A stretch of 16,655 nucleotides of DNA, taken from positions 1 to 16,655 of IMG/VR virus record IMGVR_UViG_2698536647_000004, one strand, 5' to 3'. A model generated the notes under the pieces. The model saw nothing but the letters and a program-made list of their open reading frames with translations, was not told the DNA's origin and did not search any database. This stretch comes from a virus. Its lineage: Duplodnaviria > Heunggongvirae > Uroviricota > Caudoviricetes. Each line of letters begins with the position of its first letter. Positions within the stretch are counted from its first letter, which is position 1. The translations under genes and the position numbers were made by a program. Positions 2,926-12,998 of this stretch are shown here, piece after piece.

Positions 2926-3105
2926 TTATCTGCTGCCCGGCATTCTCTGTTTAAGCACAACCATTTCCTGACGGCATAACACAGCAATAGCGGTCCTGGC
3001 ACCAATTTGCTTACCAACCAGGTATTGCTTTACCTTGCGGCGACTCACGCCATCAAGAAGCATCTTTAACGCTTCACGGGACAATTTGTTGTATTTGCGT
3101 GCCAT
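2926..3105 (-). CDS. Small basic protein (59 aa) apparently translationally coupled to doc; positionally like P1 pdcB
   Basis: ATG at 3105 lies 4 nt after the doc stop with GGAG 7 nt upstream. Translation MARKYNKLSREALKMLLDGVSRRKVKQYLVGKQIGARTAIAVLCRQEMVVLKQRMPGSR. The longer ORF to 3126 would overlap doc. Confidence 0.45.
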   Translation of the reverse strand: MARKYNKLSREALKMLLDGVSRRKVKQYLVGKQIGARTAIAVLCRQEMVVLKQRMPGSR

Positions 3106-3109
3106 TAAT

Positions 3110-3490
3110 CTACTCCGCAGAACCATACAATCTACGTAACGTGTCGGCGACAGAAGATACAGATATCTCTCCGGTCGCAGCCCCTACGGTAAGGTCTGCC
3201 AGTTCAGGTGAATCAAATACCTGCACCCCGTTACGGCGTAGAAATAACAGCGCACTGTTTAGCGCGGTACGCTTATTGGCATCATTGAATATATGCCCTC
3301 TCGCTGTAGCCACCAGGTAGGTGGCGGAGACTTCGAAAAGGTCGGTGATCTCTTCGTAGGCAACTCTGGCCTGAACTCTCCCGATAATGGCCTCTGCCCT
3401 ACCCGGATCTGACATTCCCGGCAGGCCGCCGTAGCGGTTTATATTCGCATCATGAAGCGCAATAAGTTCTTCCGGTGATATATGCCTCAT
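3110..3490 (-). CDS. doc: Doc toxin (Fic/Doc family kinase) of the phd-doc addiction module
   Basis: 126 aa starting [16 protein letters not shown], with the Fic/Doc motif HIFNDANKR. Closely resembles P1 Doc from memory. Its start overlaps the phd stop (TAATG). Confidence 0.95.
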
Positions 3491-3711
3491 TATCGGTTAA
3501 CCAGTTCCTTGTTGGTGGAGTCCAGGGTGTCAAACAGGGATGCAAATTCAGCATCCAGCGCCGCTTTTTTGTAGGCTTCGAAAGTAGCCTTGCTGACAAT
3601 TACTGCTGGCTCACGGCCTCTGCGGGTGATTTCAACCTCTTCCCCGGCCTCAACATTGTTGAGCACTTCAGAAAGGTTGCCGCGCGCGGTACGGAAGTTA
3701 ATGGATTGCAT
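3490..3711 (-). CDS. phd: Phd antitoxin (prevent-host-death)
   Basis: 73 aa, [49 protein letters not shown]..., matching P1 Phd from memory. RBS GAGGT upstream of the ATG at 3711. Confidence 0.95.
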
Positions 3712-3887: not shown

Positions 3888-5450
3888 ATGAAAATGACAA
3901 GTATTCAACAACGTGCAGAGCTTCATCGTCAAATCTGGCAAATTGCTAACGATGTCAGGGGTTCGGTCGATGGATGGGATTTTAAGCAATACGTTCTGGG
4001 CGCACTTTTCTACCGTTTTATCAGCGAAAATTTTTCCAGCTATATTGAAGCCGGTGATGACAGTATCTGTTATGCGAAACTGGATGACAGCGTAATTACT
4101 GATGACATTAAAGACGATGCCATCAAAACTAAAGGCTACTTCATCTACCCCAGTCAGCTTTTCTGCAACGTAGCGGCGAAAGCAAATACCAATGACAGAC
4201 TGAATGCAGATTTAAACAGCATCTTCGTTGCTATCGAAAGTTCTGCTTACGGTTATCCTTCAGAAGCTGACATCAAAGGTTTGTTTGCTGATTTCGATAC
4301 CACCAGTAACCGCCTGGGTAACACCGTTAAGGATAAAAATGCCCGCCTGGCTGCGGTTCTGAAAGGGGTTGAAGGGTTAAAACTTGGTGACTTCAACGAA
4401 CATCAGATTGACCTGTTCGGTGATGCCTATGAGTTCCTGATCTCTAACTATGCGGCAAATGCCGGTAAGTCAGGCGGCGAGTTCTTTACACCGCAGCACG
4501 TCTCTAAGCTGATTGCACAACTGGCTATGCACGGGCAGACCAACGTTAACAAAATCTACGACCCGGCAGCGGGTTCCGGCTCACTGTTGTTGCAGGCGAA
4601 AAAACAGTTTGATAACCACATCATCGAAGAAGGCTTTTTCGGTCAGGAAATCAACCATACGACCTATAACCTGGCGCGTATGAACATGTTTTTGCACAAT
4701 ATCAACTACGACAAGTTTGATATCAAGCTGGGTAATACACTGACTGAGCCGCACTTCAGAGATGAAAAACCGTTTGATGCCATCGTTTCTAACCCGCCGT
4801 ATTCGGTGAAATGGATTGGCAGCGATGACCCGACGCTGATTAACGATGAACGTTTTGCCCCGGCTGGCGTTCTGGCCCCCAAATCCAAAGCTGACTTTGC
4901 GTTTGTATTACATGCGCTGAACTATCTTTCGGCCAAAGGTCGCGCTGCGATTGTCTGCTTCCCGGGCATTTTTTACCGTGGCGGCGCGGAGCAGAAAATC
5001 CGTCAGTATCTGGTCGATAATAACTATGTCGAAACCGTAATTTCACTGGCTCCGAACCTGTTCTTTGGCACCACCATTGCCGTAAACATTCTGGTTCTGT
5101 CTAAACATAAAACGGATACCAACGTTCAGTTTATTGACGCCAGCGAACTGTTCAAAAAAGAGACTAACAACAATATCCTGACCGATGCCCATATCGAACA
5201 GATTATGCAGGTATTTGCCAGCAAGGAAGATGTTGCTCATCTGGCGAAATCTGTTGCGTTTGAGACTGTTGTCGCGAATGACTATAACCTGTCGGTGAGC
5301 AGCTATGTGGAAGCGAAAGATACTCGCGAAATTATCGATATCGCTGAGCTGAATGCTGAGCTGAAAACCACGGTCAGCAAAATCGACCAGTTGCGCAAAG
5401 ATATTGATGCGATTGTGGCTGAAATTGAAGGCTGCGAGGTGCAGAAATGA
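3888..5450 (+). CDS. hsdM: Type I restriction-modification N6-adenine DNA methyltransferase subunit HsdM (type IC, EcoR124-like)
   Basis: 520 aa with the AdoMet motif [10 protein letters not shown] and the catalytic NPPY motif (SNPPYS). It overlaps hsdS by 4 nt (ATGA). Confidence 0.97.
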
Positions 5451-6652
5451 GCGAGATGAGTTATCTGGAAAAATTGCTGGATGGGGTTGAGGTTGAGTGG
5501 AAGACACTTGGGCAAACTTGCAAAATTGAAACAGGAAAGCTTAATGCGAATGCGGCTGTTGATGATGGAGAGTATATGTTCTTCACGACAGCCAAAGAGA
5601 CAAGCAAAATTGATAAATTCCGCTGGGATACAGAGGCATTGCTGATTGCAGGCAATGCGAATGTTGGTGAGGTGAAGCATTACATCGGCAAGTTTGAGGC
5701 TTATCAGCGCACCTATGTTCTGACAAATTTCGACGAAAATGTAAGTGTTAGATTTTTGTATTTTGTGCTTAGCCATAGCCTGAAGAAATATCTCGAGGAA
5801 AGAACAAATAGCGCGGCAATGACATATATCGTGCTATCAACCTTAGAGAATTTCCCTATCCCCATCCCCTGCCCGGATAATCCGGAAAAATCCCTTGCCA
5901 TCCAGTCTGAAATCGTTCGGATTCTGGATAAATTTACTGCACTTACCGCTGAGCTTACCGCTGAGCTTAACATGCGTAAAAAACAGTACAACTACTATCG
6001 CGACCAGTTGTTGAGTTTTAAAGATGGTGAGGTTGAGTGGAAGACTTTGGGGGAAATTGGAGATTTTACATATGGATATGCAGCCAAAGCCATGGATTCA
6101 GGAGATGCCCGTTTCGTGAGAATTACTGACATAAATAAAGACGGGAAGCTATCGAAAGAAAACCCAATGTACGTTGAATTAAATGAGGAAAATGAGAAAT
6201 ATACCTTAGACAAAAATGATTTACTCATGGCAAGAACTGGGGCAACCTTTGGTAAAACAATGATTTTTGAAGAAGATTATCCAGCAGTATACGCTGGTTT
6301 TTTAATAAAGTTGAACCTAAATAAAACGATTATTAATGCCAAATATTACTGGCACTTTGCACAAAGTGATTTTTTTTGGGAACAGGCTAATAAATTAGTA
6401 TCTGGTGGTGGGCAACCACAGTTTAATGCTAATGCACTGAAACAAGTCAGAGTACCTATTCCATACCCATCTCACCCTCAAAAATCTTTAGACGAACAGG
6501 GGCGTATTGTGGATATTCTGGATAAGTTTGATGCAATCGCAGCTTCCATCACCGAAGGTCTTCCGCGTGAAATCGAGTTGCGCCAGAAACAATACGAATA
6601 CTACCGTGATTTACTGTTCAGTTTCCCGAAACCTGAAACTGCCAGTAATTAA
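5447..6652 (+). CDS. hsdS: Type I restriction-modification specificity subunit HsdS with two target-recognition domains
   Basis: 401 aa. Conserved central repeat region ([26 protein letters not shown]) and the matching C-terminal conserved region ([18 protein letters not shown]). The N-terminal motif VEVEWKTLG is repeated at the start of TRD2 (GEVEWKTLG). Confidence 0.95.
5944..5967 (+). repeat. Perfect 2 x 12-bp tandem repeat (TACCGCTGAGCT) encoding TAEL-TAEL in the HsdS central spacer region
   Basis: Direct read: 5944-5955 equals 5956-5967, preceded by a degenerate copy encoding TAL. In type IC systems the copy number of this repeat sets the spacer length of the recognition site (two copies in EcoR124I, three in EcoR124II, as I recall). 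Confidence 0.85.
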
Positions 6653-6679
6653 TTGATCATTGCTACCGATCGGACCACC

Positions 6680-6745
6680 TTAACACCCGGTCAGTATATA
6701 GACTATTTTTTACGCGCCGGAAGTCACCATTACCCCCCTTCCGGC
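6680..6745 (+). promoter_or_regulatory. Candidate hsdR promoter (TTAACA 6680-6685, TATATA 6695-6700 region) and a leader stem-loop (GCCGGAAG 6716-6723 / CTTCCGGC 6738-6745)
   Basis: Type IC hsdR is known to have its own promoter separate from hsdMS. The hexamers are weak; the 8-bp inverted repeat with a 14-nt loop is read directly from the sequence. Confidence 0.35.
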
Positions 6746-6773
6746 CCTTGCCAGACGGCACAAAGGATGCGCT

Positions 6774-9700
6774 ATGACTCATCAGACACACACCATTGCT
6801 GAATCCAATAACTTTATCGTTCTTGATAAGTACATCAAAGCTGAGCCAACAGGCGACAGCTACCAGAGCGAATCGGACCTGGAACGTGAACTGATTCAGG
6901 ACCTGCAAAATCAGGGTTATGAATTTATTTCCGTAAAATCACAGTCGGCAATGCTGTCCAATGTTCGGGAACAGCTTCAGAGCCTCAATGGTGTGATGTT
7001 TAATGACAGCGAGTGGCGGCGCTTCACGGAGCAGTATCTGGACAACCCCAGCGATGGTATTCTGGATAAAACCCGTAAAATCCATATCGACTATATCTGC
7101 GACTTTATTTTTGATGACGGGCGACTTGAGAACATCTATTTGATAGATAAAAAGAATCTCATGCGCAATAAGGTGCAGATTATCCAGCAGTTTGAACAGA
7201 CGGGTTCTCATGCTAACCGTTATGACGTCACGATCCTGGTTAATGGTTTACCGCTGGTGCAAATCGAACTAAAAAAACGCGGGGTGGCGATTCGTGAGGC
7301 TTTCAACCAGATACATCGTTACAGTAAAGAGAGTTTTAACAGCGAAAATTCCCTGTTTAAGTATCTGCAACTGTTTGTCATTTCTAACGGCACCGATACC
7401 CGTTATTTTGCCAACACGACAAAGCGCGATAAAAACAGTTTTGACTTCACCATGAATTGGGCGAAATCAGACAACACGCTGATTAAAGACCTCAAAGACT
7501 TTACCGCTACCTTTTTCCAGAAACATACTCTGCTGAATGTTCTGGTGAACTACAGCGTTTTTGACAGTAGTCAGACGCTACTGGTGATGCGACCGTACCA
7601 GATTGCCGCCACCGAGCGCATTCTGTGGAAAATTAAGAGTTCCTTTACAGCGAAGAACTGGTCAAAACCGGAAAGCGGTGGGTATATCTGGCACACTACC
7701 GGTTCTGGTAAAACCCTCACCAGCTTTAAAGCCGCGCGTCTGGCAACAGAGCTGGACTTTATTGATAAAGTCTTCTTTGTGGTCGACAGGAAAGACCTCG
7801 ATTACCAGACCATGAAGGAATATCAGCGTTTTTCGCCAGACAGCGTCAACGGCTCGGAAAATACCGCAGGCCTTAAACGAAATCTGGATAAGGACGATAA
7901 CAAAATTATCGTCACTACTATTCAGAAACTCAATAACCTGATGAAAGCAGAAAGCGACCTGCCTGTATATAATCAGCAAGTGGTGTTTATATTTGATGAA
8001 TGCCACCGCAGCCAGTTTGGAGAAGCGCAGAAAAACCTGAAGAAGAAATTCAAACGCTATTATCAGTTTGGTTTTACCGGCACACCTATTTTCCCGGAAA
8101 ACGCCTTAGGCTCAGAAACGACCGCCAGCGTATTTGGTCGTGAATTGCATTCGTATGTAATTACCGATGCGATTCGTGATGAAAAAGTGCTCAAATTCAA
8201 GGTGGACTACAACGATGTGCGGCCACAGTTTAAGTCTTTAGAGACAGAAACTGACGAGAAAAAACTAAGTGCGGCTGAAAATCAGCAGGCGTTTCTTCAT
8301 CCCATGCGTATACAGGAAATTACGCAATATATTCTGAATAACTTCCGCCAGAAGACGCACCGTACTTTCCCTGGCGCAAAAGGTTTTAATGCTATGTTGG
8401 CAGTGAGCAGCGTGGATGCTGCAAAAGCCTATTACGCGGCGTTTAAACGGTTACAAGAGGAAGCCGCTAATAAATCTGCAACTTATAAACCGCTGCGTGT
8501 TGCGACAATCTTCTCCTTTGCCGCTAATGAAGAACAAAATGCCATTGGTGAAATTTCCGATGAAACTTTTGATACCAGCGCAATGGACAGCAGTGCTAAA
8601 GAGTTTCTTGACGCTGCAATTCGTGAGTATAACAGCTATTTTAAAACTAACTTCAGCACCGACGGTAACGGTTTTCAGAACTACTATCGCGATTTAGCCC
8701 AACGGGTTAAAAATCAGGATATCGATCTGTTAATTGTCGTTGGGATGTTTTTAACCGGCTTCGACGCTCCAACATTGAACACGCTATTCGTCGATAAAAA
8801 CTTGCGTTTTCACGGCCTGATGCAGGCATTTTCCCGCACCAACCGCATTTATAACGCCACTAAAACCTTCGGTAACATTGTCACTTTTCGGGATCTGGAA
8901 CGCTCAACCATTGATGCCATAACGCTGTTTGGTGATAAAAATACCAAAAATGTGGTGTTAGAAAAGAGTTATGCAGAGTATATGGAAGGTTTTACTGATG
9001 CTGCCACCGGTGAAGCCAAACGCGGCTTTATGGCAGTAGTTTCAGAACTGGAACAACGGTTCCCTGACCCTGCCAGTATTGAAAGTGAAAAAGAGAAGAA
9101 AGACTTCGTTAAACTGTTTGGCGAATACCTGCGTGCCGAGAACATCCTGCAAAACTATGATGAATTTGCCACGCTAAAAGCCCTGCAACAAATCGATCTT
9201 AGCGATCCTGTTGCGGTAGAAAAATTCAAAGCAGAACATTATGTGGATGATGAAAAGTTCGCTGAATTGCAAACAATTCGTCTCCCTGCTGAACGCAAGA
9301 TTCAGGATTATCGTTCTGCCTATAACGATATTCGCGACTGGCAGCGCCGTGAGAAAGAAGCTGAGAAAAAAGAGAAATCAACCACTGACTGGGATGACGT
9401 GGTTTTTGAGGTCGATTTGCTGAAGTCTCAGGAAATAAACCTGGATTATATCCTTGGACTGATTTTCGAACACAACAGACAAAATAAAGGCAAGGGCGAA
9501 ATGATCGAAGAGGTCAAACGCTTAATTCGTTCAAGCCTGGGGAACCGGGCGAAAGAGGGCCTGATGGTCGATTTTATTCAGCAAACGAACCTGGATGATT
9601 TACCAGACAAAGCCAGTATCATTGAGGCATTCTTTACGTTTGCTCAACGCGAACAGCAACGTGAAGCAGAAGCATTGATAAAAGAAGAAAATCTCAATGA

Positions 9701-9890
9701 AGATGCAGCAAAACGCTATATTCGCACGTCTTTAAAACGCGAATACGCCACCGAAAATGGCACAGAATTAAACGAAACATTACCAAAACTTAGTCCGTTG
9801 AATCCGCAATATAAAACGAAAAAACAGGCAGTTTTCCAGAAAATCGTCTCGTTTATTGAGAAGTTTAAAGGCGTAGGCGGAAAAATATAG
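6774..9890 (+). CDS. hsdR: Type I restriction enzyme R subunit HsdR (type IC; same 1038-aa length I recall for EcoR124I HsdR)
   Basis: PD-(D/E)xK-type nuclease motif in the N-terminal domain ([19 protein letters not shown]), helicase Walker A TGSGKT and a DECH box ([10 protein letters not shown]). RBS AAGGATG before the ATG at 6774. Confidence 0.97.
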
Positions 9891-9903
9891 CCCAATTCGT
9901 GTT

Positions 9904-9937
9904 TTTCTTGCGGGTTCTTAATTAAACCCGCAAGAGC
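9904..9937. other. Stable stem-loop (stem of at least 9 bp, CTTGCGGGT / ACCCGCAAG) just after the hsdR stop; function unknown
   Basis: Direct read. The T-run is on the 5' side of the stem on the plus strand, so it is not a canonical intrinsic terminator in either orientation. Confidence 0.5.
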
Positions 9938-9969
9938 TCGTGGGGTTCCAAATGGCTAATATACTCCCC

Positions 9970-10056
9970 TTACCCATGCGCGACGATGCCGCCAAAAGTG
10001 ATAGAGAACAGCCAGAAATAGATCGCGGCCATAATGATTTTGAATGCCGTGTTCAT
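9970..10056 (-). CDS. Candidate small hydrophobic protein (28 aa, MNTAFKIIMAAIYFWLFSITFGGIVAHG)
   Basis: ATG at 10056 with AGGAG 8 nt upstream. The whole peptide looks like a single transmembrane helix. Not in the supplied ORF track (too short). It lies between a C1-operator-like site and the end of hsdR. Confidence 0.3.
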   Translation of the reverse strand: MNTAFKIIMAAIYFWLFSITFGGIVAHG

Positions 10057-10084
10057 ATTTTCAGCTCCTGTGATTGATTGGATA

Positions 10085-10115
10085 CATGCCGCGCCTTGCG
10101 GCATGTTTTTATTTT
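10085..10115 (+). terminator. Rho-independent terminator, plus orientation
   Basis: GC-rich 8-bp stem CATGCCGC (10085-10092) / GCGGCATG (10098-10105) with loop GCCTT, followed by TTTTTATTTT. It is the first canonical terminator downstream of hsdR. Confidence 0.7.
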
Positions 10116-10138
10116 CACTTTCTCTGTTTTAAAAATCA

Positions 10139-10155
10139 AGATTTATTAGAGCAAT
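10139..10155 (-). promoter_or_regulatory. C1-repressor-operator-like 17-mer ATTGCTCTAATAAATCT (16/17 to the recalled consensus)
   Basis: Read on the minus strand immediately after the stop of the HAD-like gene. The weak promoter-like hexamers TTGATT and GAAAAT follow it. Confidence 0.6.
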
Positions 10156-10661
10156 TATTGTTGATGAAGAAGCGCATTTTCGTACTCTCTGACCATTAAC
10201 GTAAGCACGCCGTGATGCCTGAAAACACGCGCTACTTCAATCTTATCTTCCAGCGCGAACGCAATTTTACTTAGACCAATTTTCTTAAGGAGATCAATCT
10301 TTGCTGGACCATCATTTCTGTCATCGGTGGCAGGACGCATAGATAGCAAAGGCTCAGCCCCATTTGTTACGTGCTTACGCAACCAGGCTCGTGTTTTATC
10401 CCTTGCGATCTCACAGCGCCCGGTTACAAACCAGACCGTGTAAACGTTAAATAACTGGCGCACCATATCAATAACTGGAGTGATGGGAGTATCGGTGTCA
10501 CAGGCGAGATTAAACTCGTTCCAGTCCTTTGTTACTGCACCTTTACCTGGTGGCGGAAGCAAATGCAGTCTGTCTTCAGTTGCCTCTGATATTGTTCCAT
10601 CAATATCGACTATGACGATATACGGACGTTCCTGGTGTGCGTGTTTATTGAAAATACTCAA
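10155..10661 (-). CDS. HAD-superfamily phosphatase-like protein (168 aa)
   Basis: TTG start at 10661 preceded by a strong AGGAGG (4-5 nt spacer) and an in-frame upstream stop. HAD motif I DIDGT (VIVDIDGTIS). Possibly equivalent to a P1 phosphatase gene, but I cannot confirm that from memory. Confidence 0.6.
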   Translation of the reverse strand: MSIFNKHAHQERPYIVIVDIDGTISEATEDRLHLLPPPGKGAVTKDWNEFNLACDTDTPITPVIDMVRQLFNVYTVWFVTGRCEIARDKTRAWLRKHVTNGAEPLLSMRPATDDRNDGPAKIDLLKKIGLSKIAFALEDKIEVARVFRHHGVLTLMVREYENALLHQQ

Positions 10662-10732
10662 ATGCCCTCCTCATTGGACGAAAAAATGCTGGTGGGCGCA
10701 CTCCACCAACATTAAAAGTGACACTGTAACTA

Positions 10733-11995
10733 TCAGCGAACGTAAATAGTGCCGCCGTTCTCTTTTTCCCATGCATCGCTACGTGCATAGCAAACATCGA
10801 GAAGTCTTCTTGCCGCTGTTTCCTCTAAACCCAATTCGACAACCAACTGTTCATGACGGCGGGTAACCACATCAAACAACGTATGCAGCCCTTTAGTTGC
10901 CAGTTCATCAATGAATTCCGGTTCGAACGGTAGCTCTGCATCTGCCAACATAACCTCTTGCGCCCACTCGACACGGCGGACCAGTTCCGGGCGGCGGCTT
11001 TCCATCTCTTTACAGATCAATTCATGGAAGAACTCTACCCAACCTTCCGGCTGGAACTCGCGGAAAATGGCCAACGGCTGGAAGTTTGGCATCAACCATT
11101 CGTTGATACGGATATCAATGGCATAGCCCATGTCGCAGCAGAACTGATAAGCAAAGTCCAGCTTAGAAACGATATAAGGACGCTCGTTATTGAACTCTTT
11201 AGGCGATGAGATCCCATAAGCCAGGAGGCGCGGGAAGAATGAGATTTGCCCTAACGTCGGATGAAGTTTGCTTGCAGGGAAACGGCGCTCAGTAATGCCA
11301 TACATTTCCTTCTTGAGCGTCGCAAATTTGGCATTCTCATTAACCAGCGCGGTAACCTCTGCTTTTTTATTAGCAAATGCCACGCGCGCTTCGCTTGCAT
11401 CTTTAATAGTTTTTTTGAGCTGTTGGTTAAGGTCGGCGACCTGTTTACGCAGTTCCTGCCGCTCGCTTTTAGCTTTGTTATAGCGTTTCTCAAGGTTAAA
11501 AGGATCAAGTTTCATGATCTCTTTATATTGAGATTTTAGCGTTGAAATCTGTGAGTTCCGCAGTTCAACCATCGCGGTCATTTCATTGAGTTTTGTTTCC
11601 AGCTCAATGCTTATACGTTCGGCATTATCAGCACGCTGGTTGGCGTCATGCGTCGCATCGTCGATCGCATCCTGTTGCTGGCGTTTCAAATGTTCAATTT
11701 GCAGCTGAAGCTCTTCAATTTCTTTACCCTTCAGACCGAGATCCAACTGCATATTTTCAGCTGCATCTACCAGGGAGTTATGGCTATCAGCTTCTGCGTT
11801 ATAAACATCAATAAGCTGTGCGTGAAGCATCTCCGCTGACTGAACCGCATTATCAAAAAAACGTGCTGTGAGGTCATCACAACTAACGCGGCGTTGCGCG
11901 GCCCGGATGTTCTGGATAATGGCCGGGATACCGGCATTCAGGACATCAGGGATAGATACATTTTCGATTGATTGGTTTTGTGCTGAAGTGCTCAT
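10733..11995 (-). CDS. Hypothetical 420-aa protein: long N-terminal coiled-coil region plus a C-terminal domain of unknown function
   Basis: ATG at 11995. Residues about 90-230 are heptad-rich (EIEELQLQIEHLKRQQQ...ELRKQVADLNQQLKK). I do not recognise any catalytic motif in the C-terminal 190 aa. Confidence 0.7.
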   Translation of the reverse strand: MSTSAQNQSIENVSIPDVLNAGIPAIIQNIRAAQRRVSCDDLTARFFDNAVQSAEMLHAQLIDVYNAEADSHNSLVDAAENMQLDLGLKGKEIEELQLQIEHLKRQQQDAIDDATHDANQRADNAERISIELETKLNEMTAMVELRNSQISTLKSQYKEIMKLDPFNLEKRYNKAKSERQELRKQVADLNQQLKKTIKDASEARVAFANKKAEVTALVNENAKFATLKKEMYGITERRFPASKLHPTLGQISFFPRLLAYGISSPKEFNNERPYIVSKLDFAYQFCCDMGYAIDIRINEWLMPNFQPLAIFREFQPEGWVEFFHELICKEMESRRPELVRRVEWAQEVMLADAELPFEPEFIDELATKGLHTLFDVVTRRHEQLVVELGLEETAARRLLDVCYARSDAWEKENGGTIYVR

Positions 11996-11996
11996 T

Positions 11997-12215
11997 TCAA
12001 AGTTCCGTATTAGCTTGTGCTTCGGTCATTTTTCCTAAGTATGAAGGAGGAAGGACTACGCAATTTGTATCCAGTCCCTCACCTATGGCAGCCTGTAAAA
12101 TTCTGGCTAAGGTGAGTCTCTTGTTGCGATACCTGGTGATGACATGCCTGATACCGCCGGTCGGCGTAACAAAGGCGATCAGCCAGTAGTGATATTTCCG
12201 TCGGAATGGCCACAT
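11997..12215 (-). CDS. Hypothetical small protein (72 aa if started at the ATG at 12215), stop 1 nt before the ATG of the 420-aa gene
   Basis: The ORF track gives 11997..12272, but that 5' extension overlaps the minus-strand terminator. The ATG at 12215 has AGGGTG upstream. The tight spacing to the next gene suggests coupling. Confidence 0.4.
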   Translation of the reverse strand: MWPFRRKYHYWLIAFVTPTGGIRHVITRYRNKRLTLARILQAAIGEGLDTNCVVLPPSYLGKMTEAQANTEL

Positions 12216-12229
12216 AGTGCACCCTGTAG

Positions 12230-12246
12230 ATTGCTCTAATAAAAAA
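12230..12246 (+). promoter_or_regulatory. C1-repressor-operator-like 17-mer ATTGCTCTAATAAAAAA (14/17), plus orientation
   Basis: Direct read. It forms an inverted pair with the site at 12279-12295. Confidence 0.5.
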
Positions 12247-12267
12247 CGTGATGAGTGTACATCACGT
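12237..12267 (-). terminator. Rho-independent terminator, minus orientation, ending the glycosyltransferase-like operon
   Basis: Stem ACGTGATG (12246-12253) / CATCACGT (12260-12267) with a 6-nt loop. On the minus strand the stem is followed by TTTTTTATT. Confidence 0.7.
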
Positions 12268-12278
12268 TTCAAAAATAT

Positions 12279-12295
12279 GGAATTATTAGAGCAAT
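12279..12295 (-). promoter_or_regulatory. C1-repressor-operator-like 17-mer ATTGCTCTAATAATTCC (14/17), minus orientation
   Basis: Read on the minus strand directly after the stop of the glycosyltransferase-like gene. The following 30 nt closely resemble the sequence after the site at 10139-10155. Confidence 0.55.
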
Positions 12296-12296
12296 A

Positions 12297-12998
12297 TTAT
12301 TCTGATTCTCGCTCAAAAAACGAGCTGATAAGGGGAAGCCAATCCTCTGACACTTCGCGAGGTCGCGGTTTGCCGTGGAAAAAGATTATTCGGCAGTCTT
12401 TTGGTAATGCCCCATTCCCCCTGGAGTAACGCGCGCTCGCATATTTCGAACCAGGTTCCACAACATCGGCCTTGTAACTTACAAACCATCCTGGATACAG
12501 ATCCTGAAATGCTGGTGTATCATCGCCCATAACCTTTCGTAAGAACCCCTGGTCACCCCAGCACTCAGTAGTGACACAACGAGAAATCCAACCTTCCGGA
12601 TCTTGCCAGAATGAACTCCAGATATGCGCTTTAACACTATTTGGTATCCACAGGGCACCGCTGCCACGATATTGTGGATGGTAAAAATCCCTAAGCATGG
12701 TGAAGCTGGTTGGTGGATGCTCTAGGATTGGGCGTATATCACCGGCAATAACCGTGTCCAAATCCAGATAGAACAGATCATCGGTTATATCCGGTCGGAA
12801 CAACTCGATTTTCGCCCACCAGCCACGGCACTTTTGCCACTGGTTGATCAATGGGACAACTTTGACGCCAGGTACATGTAAACGCTTCAGGTCTGTCAGG
12901 CAAATAATTTCATAGCCTTTTGGCAGTTGATTAACCAGCCACTGCACATCGGAAGCGTTATAGTCACCACCAGAGCGAAAAACTAAAGCAATCTTCAT
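12297..12998 (-). CDS. Hypothetical protein (233 aa), possibly a glycosyltransferase (DxD-like LDLD motif)
   Basis: ATG at 12998 overlaps the stop of the upstream phosphatase gene (ATGA). The N-terminus [13 protein letters not shown] and [12 protein letters not shown] suggest a nucleotide-sugar transferase fold, but this is weak. Confidence 0.45.

Follow-up and report, generated by a model that had tools for sequence, protein, structure and literature searches.

On the minus strand of IMG/VR virus record IMGVR_UViG_2698536647_000004, a stretch of 16,655 nucleotides (nt) that was analysed whole and is hereafter called the window, a hydrophobic open reading frame (ORF) of 28 codons lies at 10056..9970 and faces the restriction gene hsdR, which raises the question of whether this small ORF is a gene and, if so, to what system it belongs. 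A preliminary description of the window had likened the locus to small membrane-toxin loci that are regulated by antisense RNA, and had held that it could equally be a chance ORF. The window is a P1-like phage-plasmid, and we consider it probable that the small ORF is a genuine gene of the P1 backbone, namely a translationally coupled cistron at the head of an early operon that C1 controls through the operator Op88, and that it encodes a single-pass membrane peptide.

Read directly from the sequence, the ATG of the small ORF occupies 10056-10054 and its TAA 9972-9970 on the minus strand, giving 28 codons plus the stop, and a Shine-Dalgarno (SD) sequence, AGGAG, is found at 10069-10065 on the same strand, 8 nt ahead of the ATG, just as the preliminary description had it. 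The product, MNTAFKIIMAAIYFWLFSITFGGIVAHG, carries a lysine at position 6 (K6) followed by a hydrophobic stretch at residues 7-26, whose mean Kyte-Doolittle (KD) hydropathy is 2.08; the best 19-residue window reaches 2.1, in support of the single transmembrane helix proposed earlier, and the product is predicted to be a single-pass membrane peptide. The rate at which such a combination arises by chance was estimated from 300 first-order Markov simulations of the 16.6-kb window, in which we counted ATG-initiated ORFs of 25-60 codons that were preceded at 5-11 nt by AGGAG or GGAGG and contained a hydrophobic 19-residue window (KD >= 2.0). An ORF with both the SD and the hydrophobic window occurred in 0.3% of the simulated windows (P ~0.003 per window), and the real window contains exactly one that combines the two properties, which is the small ORF.

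The surroundings of the small ORF are those of phage P1. Positions 9966-12699 of the window are 97.9% identical to P1, and the 351 nt around the small ORF match 890 of 5,426 complete E. coli genomes, nearly always on plasmids, as well as P1, P7, SJ46, RCS47, and further Punavirus records. Of 19 phage records with the ORF, 18 encode a protein that is 100% identical to the one in the window, and the remaining record encodes one that is 96% identical. The upstream neighbour is pap (3'-phosphatase / HAD-PNKP; 10155..10661, minus strand), and collecting loci through Pap yielded 85 for a survey of what adjoins the 3' end of the ORF; a scan of genome contigs with Pap returned 2 loci only, both close relatives. 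The ORF is intact and followed by pmgT, as in P1, at 60 loci, by an hsd cassette, as in the window, at 20-22 loci, and by new sequence from the stop codon onward at one locus (L035), whereas at two loci (L049, L061) the junction falls within the ORF, at codon 20, and the C-terminal third is replaced. In total, 83 of the 85 P1-type loci keep the ORF intact, with no stop or frameshift.

DNA of the P1 type is too similar to inform on coding, and it is the diverged relatives that decide the matter. In Cronobacter phage JK004 (locus L087, MZ188976), Pap is 73% identical and BLASTN finds a match at the DNA level to the operator only; there, pap is followed in order by an operator (ATTGCTCTAATAAATAT), a hairpin of other sequence, CCAATCAATCAC, CGGAGC, and an ORF of 53 amino acids (L087 3087..3248) that starts MHLIFKLAITAFYAWMLTVV and reads in full MHLIFKLAITAFYAWMLTVVITSFKPDANMKASRYLGNLSASYDCDQQGDDSL. 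GenBank calls JK004 gene_94 from an internal ATG at 3132, giving 38 amino acids, whereas the conserved, SD-bearing ORF runs from 3087; the GenBank record thus probably truncates the transmembrane part. A word-indexed search and HMMER, run in full over 1.84 billion representatives, added P0023, P0024, and P0025, which share MQVLIKLAVTAFFVWLFS..., and P0026, which begins MNTAFKLAMAAFYFWIFCIAF and has the sequence MNTAFKLAMAAFYFWIFCIAFNGLVKAAPTLQVIYQNDAPASNQEGSF. P0023 and P0024 (loci L088-L090) and P0026 (locus L092) bridge the ORF of JK004 to that of P1, and the contigs of the relatives are P1-like and syntenic in the order pmgR-pmgS-(pap)-small ORF-cargo. At L092 (2800-3150), pap is absent and the module of operator, promoter, hairpin, and small ORF stands directly after pmgS, from which it follows that the small ORF travels with its operator, promoter, and leader, not with pap.

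Aligned with one another, these proteins all have M1, K6, A11, and W15; they are hydrophobic throughout the first ~21 residues, beyond which comes a tail of 0-29 residues. Nei-Gojobori counts over codons 2-24 show P1 and L092 to differ at 11.5 of 14.7 synonymous sites (pS 0.78, saturated) and at 11.5 of 54.3 nonsynonymous sites (pN 0.21), and full-length pairs of the JK004 type give dN/dS values of 0.22-0.40. Conservation of the peptide in relatives, which had been suggested as a check, is found in JK004, L088-L090, and L092, together with purifying selection, and this conservation at the protein level overturns the suggestion that a chance ORF was an equally good explanation. Judged by these sequence comparisons, the small ORF codes for a protein, and purifying selection acts on the predicted transmembrane part of that protein.

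Upstream of the ORF, what had been noted as an operator-like site is the C1 operator OpmgT (formerly Op88) at 10139..10155 on the minus strand. Its sequence, ATTGCTCTAATAAATCT, has one mismatch to the asymmetric 17-bp C1 consensus ATTGCTCTAATAAATTT, coincides in position with the annotated OpmgT of P1, and extends over the final base of the pap stop codon. Sites of the C1 consensus number three in the window against 0.09 expected, the other two, at 12230-12246 (plus) and 12279-12295 (minus), being Op86b and Op86a of P1, upstream of pmgR. The P1 record (NC_005856) annotates here pmgS, pap, the monovalent OpmgT, the predicted promoters P1pmgT and P2pmgT, and pmgT, with the operator/promoter pair OpmgT-PpmgT driving pmgT-pmgU-pmgV. 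Mapped to the window, the predicted sigma-70 promoter P1pmgT lies at 10111..10139 on the minus strand, with a -35 TTGATT at 10139-10134, a 17-nt spacer, and a -10 GAAAAT at 10116-10111; a strict consensus promoter scan did not call it in the window, and the relatives keep the motif TTG(A/T)TT-17-nAnAAT. At L088-L090, the operator ATTGTTCTAATAAAT lies ~100 nt ahead of the ORF and has an inverted copy of itself, TTATTAGAATAAT, behind it; the resulting long palindrome may be a bivalent C1 operator.

Five lineages, those of P1, JK004, L088, L089/L090, and L092, share one order of elements: the C1 operator overlapping the promoter, with the -35 TTG(A/T)TT over the operator end, the 17-nt spacer, the -10 nAnAAT, a GC-rich hairpin that begins 4-7 nt past the -10 (at about +1), a C/A-rich stretch of the form (C)CAATCA(ATCA)C, GGAG(C), and the ATG. 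The hairpin of the window has a 9-bp GC-rich stem at 10084..10106 on the minus strand, ACATGCCGC-AAGGC-GCGGCATGT, and since it begins 4 nt past the predicted -10, it would be at or near the 5' end of the mRNA, if transcription starts where this promoter implies. The C/A-rich leader of the window, CCAATCAATCAC (10070..10081, minus strand), adjoins the SD and corresponds to CAATCAATCA and CCAATCAC in relatives, whose SD is CGGAGC at 5 nt before the ATG; this leader is kept in all lineages despite the saturation of synonymous sites in the ORF. The stems, by contrast with their shared position, have unrelated sequences: besides the P1-type stem of the window, they read GGCCGC / GCGGCC in JK004, TTGGCAGTCAC / GTGACTGCCAA in L088, TTGGCGGTCGC / GTGACCGCC(G/A)A in L089/L090, and AAGGCCAC / GTGGCCTT in L092. 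Five unrelated stem sequences at one position amount to covariation that preserves the helix. In L049, L089, and L090, the substitutions form G.U pairs on the ORF-sense strand and C.A mismatches on the opposite strand, and the sense hairpins of these loci are 3.6-5.5 kcal/mol more stable than the antisense ones.

The same hairpin is what had been described as the first canonical plus-strand terminator (10085-10115) beyond the ORF, and a pattern scan of 9700-10400 does return it as the single intrinsic-terminator-like site, on the plus strand, with the stem at 10084-10106 and then TTTTTATTTTC. Together with its T-run (10107-10116), it reads as a plus-strand intrinsic terminator that would end hsdR transcripts. 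The T-run is the complement of the A-rich -10/discriminator GAAAATAAAAA and is confined to P1-type elements. The hairpin appears to act above all as a stem-loop close to where the mRNA of the small ORF begins, and in hsd-type elements it would happen to terminate hsdR as well.

Two further features of the leader deserve mention. Among the non-P1 lineages, the 9-nt loops of the hairpins resemble one another more closely than the stems do (ACGCTATCA, GCACTACCA, GCGCTTCCA; L087 ~3016-3024, L092 ~2959-2967, and also L088 and L089/L090), a likeness which hints that the loop is specifically recognised; P1-type elements have another loop, the 5-nt AAGGC, and several loci have a variant with a 2-nt insertion, AAGGGGC. 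Folds of JK004, L088, and L089 include a possible SD-sequestering stem in which CCAAU would pair with UUGG inside the ORF, and which is weak in P1.

At its 3' end, the ORF is closely joined to the next gene wherever a co-directional one follows. Stop and start overlap as ATGA in JK004, L088, and L089 and as TGATG in L092, and in P1 and SJ46 the gap to the next start is 9 nt, with the SD of the next gene overlapping the 3' end of the ORF; in P1, the junction with pmgT reads ...CAT GGG TAA GGGGGATGC ATG AAA..., with GGGGGA between. A stop that overlaps the next start or lies within ~10 nt of it, as is expected of a leader cistron, is thus present in P1 and the relatives, and is absent from the window. 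At the same time, the small ORF is intact in ~20 hsd-type loci that have no downstream co-directional gene at all.

From this arrangement we infer the following course of events. Inactivation of C1 would allow the promoter overlapping Op88/OpmgT to fire, and the transcript would start at or a few nt before the GC-rich stem-loop, which is presumed to stabilise the RNA, a presumption that draws on the relationship between 5' stem-loops and RNase E. The unstructured C/A-rich leader and the strong SD would then load ribosomes onto the 28-codon ORF, whose product would be a single-pass inner-membrane peptide with its N-terminus (K6) probably in the cytoplasm, and the placement of the stop at the next start would enable terminating ribosomes to re-initiate on the first cargo gene (translational coupling). 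In the window, where the segment from pmgT to humD has been swapped for hsdMSR, the ORF would be left as an orphan that is monocistronic, C1-repressed, and facing hsdR.

Much of this arrangement could also be expected of a purely regulatory leader ORF, of which only the act of translation matters, whether by preventing Rho-dependent polarity or by opening or coupling the downstream start, and whose peptide is functionless. Such an ORF would account for the tight stop-start geometry seen wherever a lineage has a gene downstream, for the variability of the C-terminal part (28, 48, or 53 amino acids, plus the fusions P0009, P0013, P0014, and P0019), and for variable-region junctions that fall within the 3' end of the ORF or right at it. 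It is at odds with the conservation of the first ~21 residues (K6, A11, W15, and the hydrophobic character) in the face of saturated synonymous sites, and with the hsd-type loci that keep the ORF unbroken with nothing co-directional downstream; this retention, taken with the conserved amino-acid sequence, speaks for a function of the peptide itself beyond coupling, and we regard a purely regulatory role as improbable. A chance or non-coding ORF whose conservation stems from RNA or DNA constraints of the pmgT leader, or from those of a recombination hot-spot border, would be in keeping with the ~98% identity of the whole 200-nt segment in P1-type elements, where the frame is conserved trivially, and with the strong conservation of the leader nucleotides beside the ORF. 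Yet lineages whose DNA BLASTN can no longer align still have the frame, its start context, and the hydrophobic 21 N-terminal residues, pS lies far above pN, and the combination of SD and transmembrane segment is rare in simulated windows, all of which makes this explanation very hard to credit. We also give only a small chance to an extended version of our own proposal, in which operator, promoter, stem-loop, leader, and transmembrane ORF would form a conserved 'expression platform' at one border of the main cargo hot spot of P1-like phage-plasmids, the peptide would be a lytic-phase membrane effector, and in hsd carriers it would secondarily have come under antisense control by the 3' untranslated region (UTR) of hsdR. 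Were this so, the effector might, for example, depolarise the membrane or inhibit a host membrane protein, and the antisense control would represent an accidental toxin/antisense pair that arose from cassette exchange.

Several observations weigh against the reading that we prefer, that of a coupled, C1-controlled gene for a membrane peptide. The shallow P1-type sample is only weakly skewed, with 3 synonymous and 2 nonsynonymous polymorphisms in the 60 pmgT-type loci and 7 synonymous and 8 nonsynonymous in 20 hsd-type loci; the nonsynonymous changes of the latter fall mostly in the variable tail (G22D, G23D/S, G28R), and G22D and G23D occur in several hsd-type loci. The recombination junction of L049 and L061 inside the ORF at codon 20 implies that its C-terminal third is dispensable or replaceable, and the hairpin of JK004 is slightly more stable on the antisense strand. 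The family is tiny, comprising 8 clusters among 1.84 billion representatives, and no function can be transferred to it, because it has no Pfam, PHROG, or NCBIfam match: the 28-amino-acid peptide has none in Pfam or NCBIfam at E <= 10, the 53-amino-acid homologues have none in NCBIfam and only weak, sub-threshold Pfam matches to non-toxin families, and PHROG matches of the small-ORF peptides are weak and below significance (E 0.05-0.33). Pfam searches of PmgT, PmgU, PmgV, gp93-91 of JK004, and the neighbours at L092 gave a weak winged helix-turn-helix match (TrmB) in a 105-amino-acid neighbour and were otherwise uninformative. A literature search, which did not cover the P1 genome paper (PMC523184), found no mention of the small ORF, and no ribosome-profiling or proteomic data on its product turned up in it. 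Knock-down by CRISPR interference has shown pap, pmgT, pmgU, and pmgV to be non-essential for plaque formation by P1 (PMC10695390); from the non-essentiality of these neighbours, the operon is taken to be accessory, and an accessory early role is to be expected for the peptide.

The other half of the question concerns hsdR. This gene, of the EcoR124I type (type IC), occupies 6774..9890 on the plus strand, converges with the small ORF, and ends 79 nt from the stop of the ORF, and its product aligns over its full length to PDB 2W00 (EcoR124I HsdR; 2274 bits over 1038 amino acids). It is the last gene of an hsdM-hsdS-hsdR operon that spans 3888-9890 (plus strand) and has the small ORF on one side and the phd-doc addiction module (phd, 3490-3711; doc, 3110-3490; both minus strand) on the other. 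P1 homology ends at 9966, 4 nt past the stop of the small ORF and within what in P1 is the SD of pmgT, and the sequence from there to hsdR (9891..9965) is the non-P1 tail of the hsd cassette. The tail contains a 10-bp hairpin at 9907-9934 (CTTGCGGGTT/AACCCGCAAG) that begins 17 nt past the hsdR stop, is the only structure between hsdR and the small ORF, and belongs to the hsd tail, not to the P1 backbone. On the plus strand a T-run precedes this hairpin and on the minus strand an A-run follows it; because no T-run follows the stem on either strand, it is a canonical terminator on neither, and the first canonical terminator for hsdR is the hairpin with T-run at 10084-10116. With the hsdR stop at 9890, the geometry stated in the preliminary description, whereby hsdR read-through would be antisense to the ORF, holds.

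The origin of this geometry can be followed in related elements. A 100% identical plasmid, NZ_AP018397, has the order pacA'-lpa-pdcB-pdcA-doc-phd (minus), hsdM-hsdS-hsdR (plus), and small ORF-pap-pmgS (minus), and in the window the P1 genes pmgT-pmgU-pmgV-upfMNO-hot-lxr-humD are replaced by the inverted EcoR124-type hsdMSR. The segment from pmgT to humD is variable region 8 of P1-like phage-plasmids (PMC9603915), and the P1 record itself remarks on P1-like sequence downstream of the R124/3 and EcoDXXI hsd loci. Convergence with hsdR is found in about a quarter of loci, namely the 20-22 hsd-type loci among our 85 and 221 of the 890 E. coli genomes with the region. Since the hsd cassette replaced pmgT to humD, this convergence is secondary and not a design of the ORF locus. 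The operator and promoter in the window would drive the small ORF alone, the next gene being the convergent hsdR; minus-strand transcription would run into hsdR and hsdR transcripts would cover the small ORF, both of which we regard as incidental. Junctions that fall within the ORF or at its 3' end also give rise to C-terminal fusions (L049, L061, P0007, P0009, P0013, P0014, and P0019), the forms of which include L092-like tails such as YQNEDAPKK and a fusion to a DUF551 protein. The hot-spot border takes in the 3' end of the ORF.

The resemblance to a small membrane-toxin locus with an antisense RNA would, if it were more than a resemblance, make the locus similar to a type I toxin-antitoxin (TA) system, in which a membrane toxin is silenced either by a dedicated small RNA ending at 10084-10116 or by the 3' UTR or read-through transcript of hsdR. 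The peptide is indeed small and hydrophobic with one predicted transmembrane segment, a strong intrinsic terminator of the opposite strand overlaps the 5' UTR of the ORF so that plus-strand transcripts crossing the ORF would end just past the SD, and the hsdR transcript of hsd-type elements meets no canonical terminator before that point. A weak GcvB-like match on the plus strand at 10029-10112, antisense to the SD region and the terminator, could be added to these; it scores 20.3 bits against a gathering threshold of 42 (E 0.036) and was judged to be due to chance. An Rfam scan of 9700-10400 at E <= 10 yielded sub-threshold matches only (GcvB, isrK, and a snoRNA), and thus no family above threshold. 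A consensus sigma-70 scan of the plus strand over 9700-10400 found no promoter-like site, although a non-consensus promoter could escape it, and a relaxed scan found no antisense promoter in either the window or P1 and, among the relatives, none that shared a position. Searches of Pfam and NCBIfam returned no match to toxin families (Hok/Gef, Ldr, TisB, Ibs, ShoB, Zor, DinQ, and others). In these scans, the type I TA model apparently lacks its defining antisense component. Moreover, the promoter of the ORF is under phage C1 and the ORF is operonic, whereas classical toxin genes are transcribed on their own; the T-run of the terminator is absent from JK004, L088-L090, and L092 while the sense hairpin is kept; and hsdR faces the ORF in a minority of loci. 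The toxin idea thus finds no support here, and we consider it very unlikely.

The claim that the ORF is unannotated was correct for the P1 reference record, which has no coding sequence (CDS) between pap and pmgT though the small ORF is present there, and incorrect for some other records, which call the same frame. The latter include a 44-amino-acid 'hypothetical protein' (WP_001426503.1), a 'membrane protein' of phage SJ46 (YP_009293555.1), and a 28-amino-acid hypothetical protein of E. coli O111:H11 CVM9545 (P0008). A word-indexed protein search with the 44-amino-acid form gave matches that were all 93-100% identical, and the ATG of this form sits inside the hairpin, without an SD. Because in the relatives no other start lies between the SD-proximal ATG and the stop that precedes it, the 28-amino-acid start is favoured over the longer one. 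The family is missing from the P1 reference annotation, Pfam, PHROGs, and NCBIfam, and has received sporadic automatic annotation only.

Few phages are as widely used or as well annotated as P1, and P1-like phage-plasmids are important vehicles of resistance and defence cargo. For this group, the annotation of the locus can be corrected to a CDS of 28 amino acids in place of one of 44 or none, and the recombination border of the variable region from pmgT to humD, at which cargo such as the EcoR124-type restriction system is swapped, is defined to within a few nt. The small ORF is also a short candidate sequence, either for a membrane function early in lytic growth or for a device that expresses swapped-in cargo through coupling. 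These results will be of use to specialists on P1 and phage-plasmids and are not surprising in kind.

As far as the searches of sequence collections reach, the small ORF constitutes a lineage-restricted family that is confined to P1-like elements and is not a new kind of system, and its likenesses to known systems are partial. With the C1-controlled early operon of P1 it shares the operator, the overlap with the pap stop, the predicted promoters, and the DNA at 97.9% identity, and it fills the 5' leader of that operon; the window differs from P1 in lacking pmgT to humD, and the P1 annotation differs in lacking a leader CDS. Type I TA toxins (Hok/Sok, TisB/IstR, Ibs/Sib, and Ldr/Rdl) are likewise short hydrophobic peptides, and in this element an opposite-strand transcript could similarly overlap the SD and the start codon; unlike them, the small ORF is repressor-controlled and operonic and abuts or overlaps downstream genes, the overlap with hsdR being a secondary rearrangement. 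Small single-pass membrane proteins of fewer than 50 amino acids form the class of MgtR, AcrZ, KdpF, and YohP, which the small ORF matches in size, single helix, strong SD, and lineage-restricted conservation; it differs from them in being repressor-controlled and located in a phage early operon, and no sequence relationship to them was found. With the coupled leader cistrons and upstream ORFs of phage operons it has in common the stop-start overlap and a downstream SD inside its 3' end, and it is set apart from them by a peptide that is under purifying selection and is kept where nothing lies downstream.

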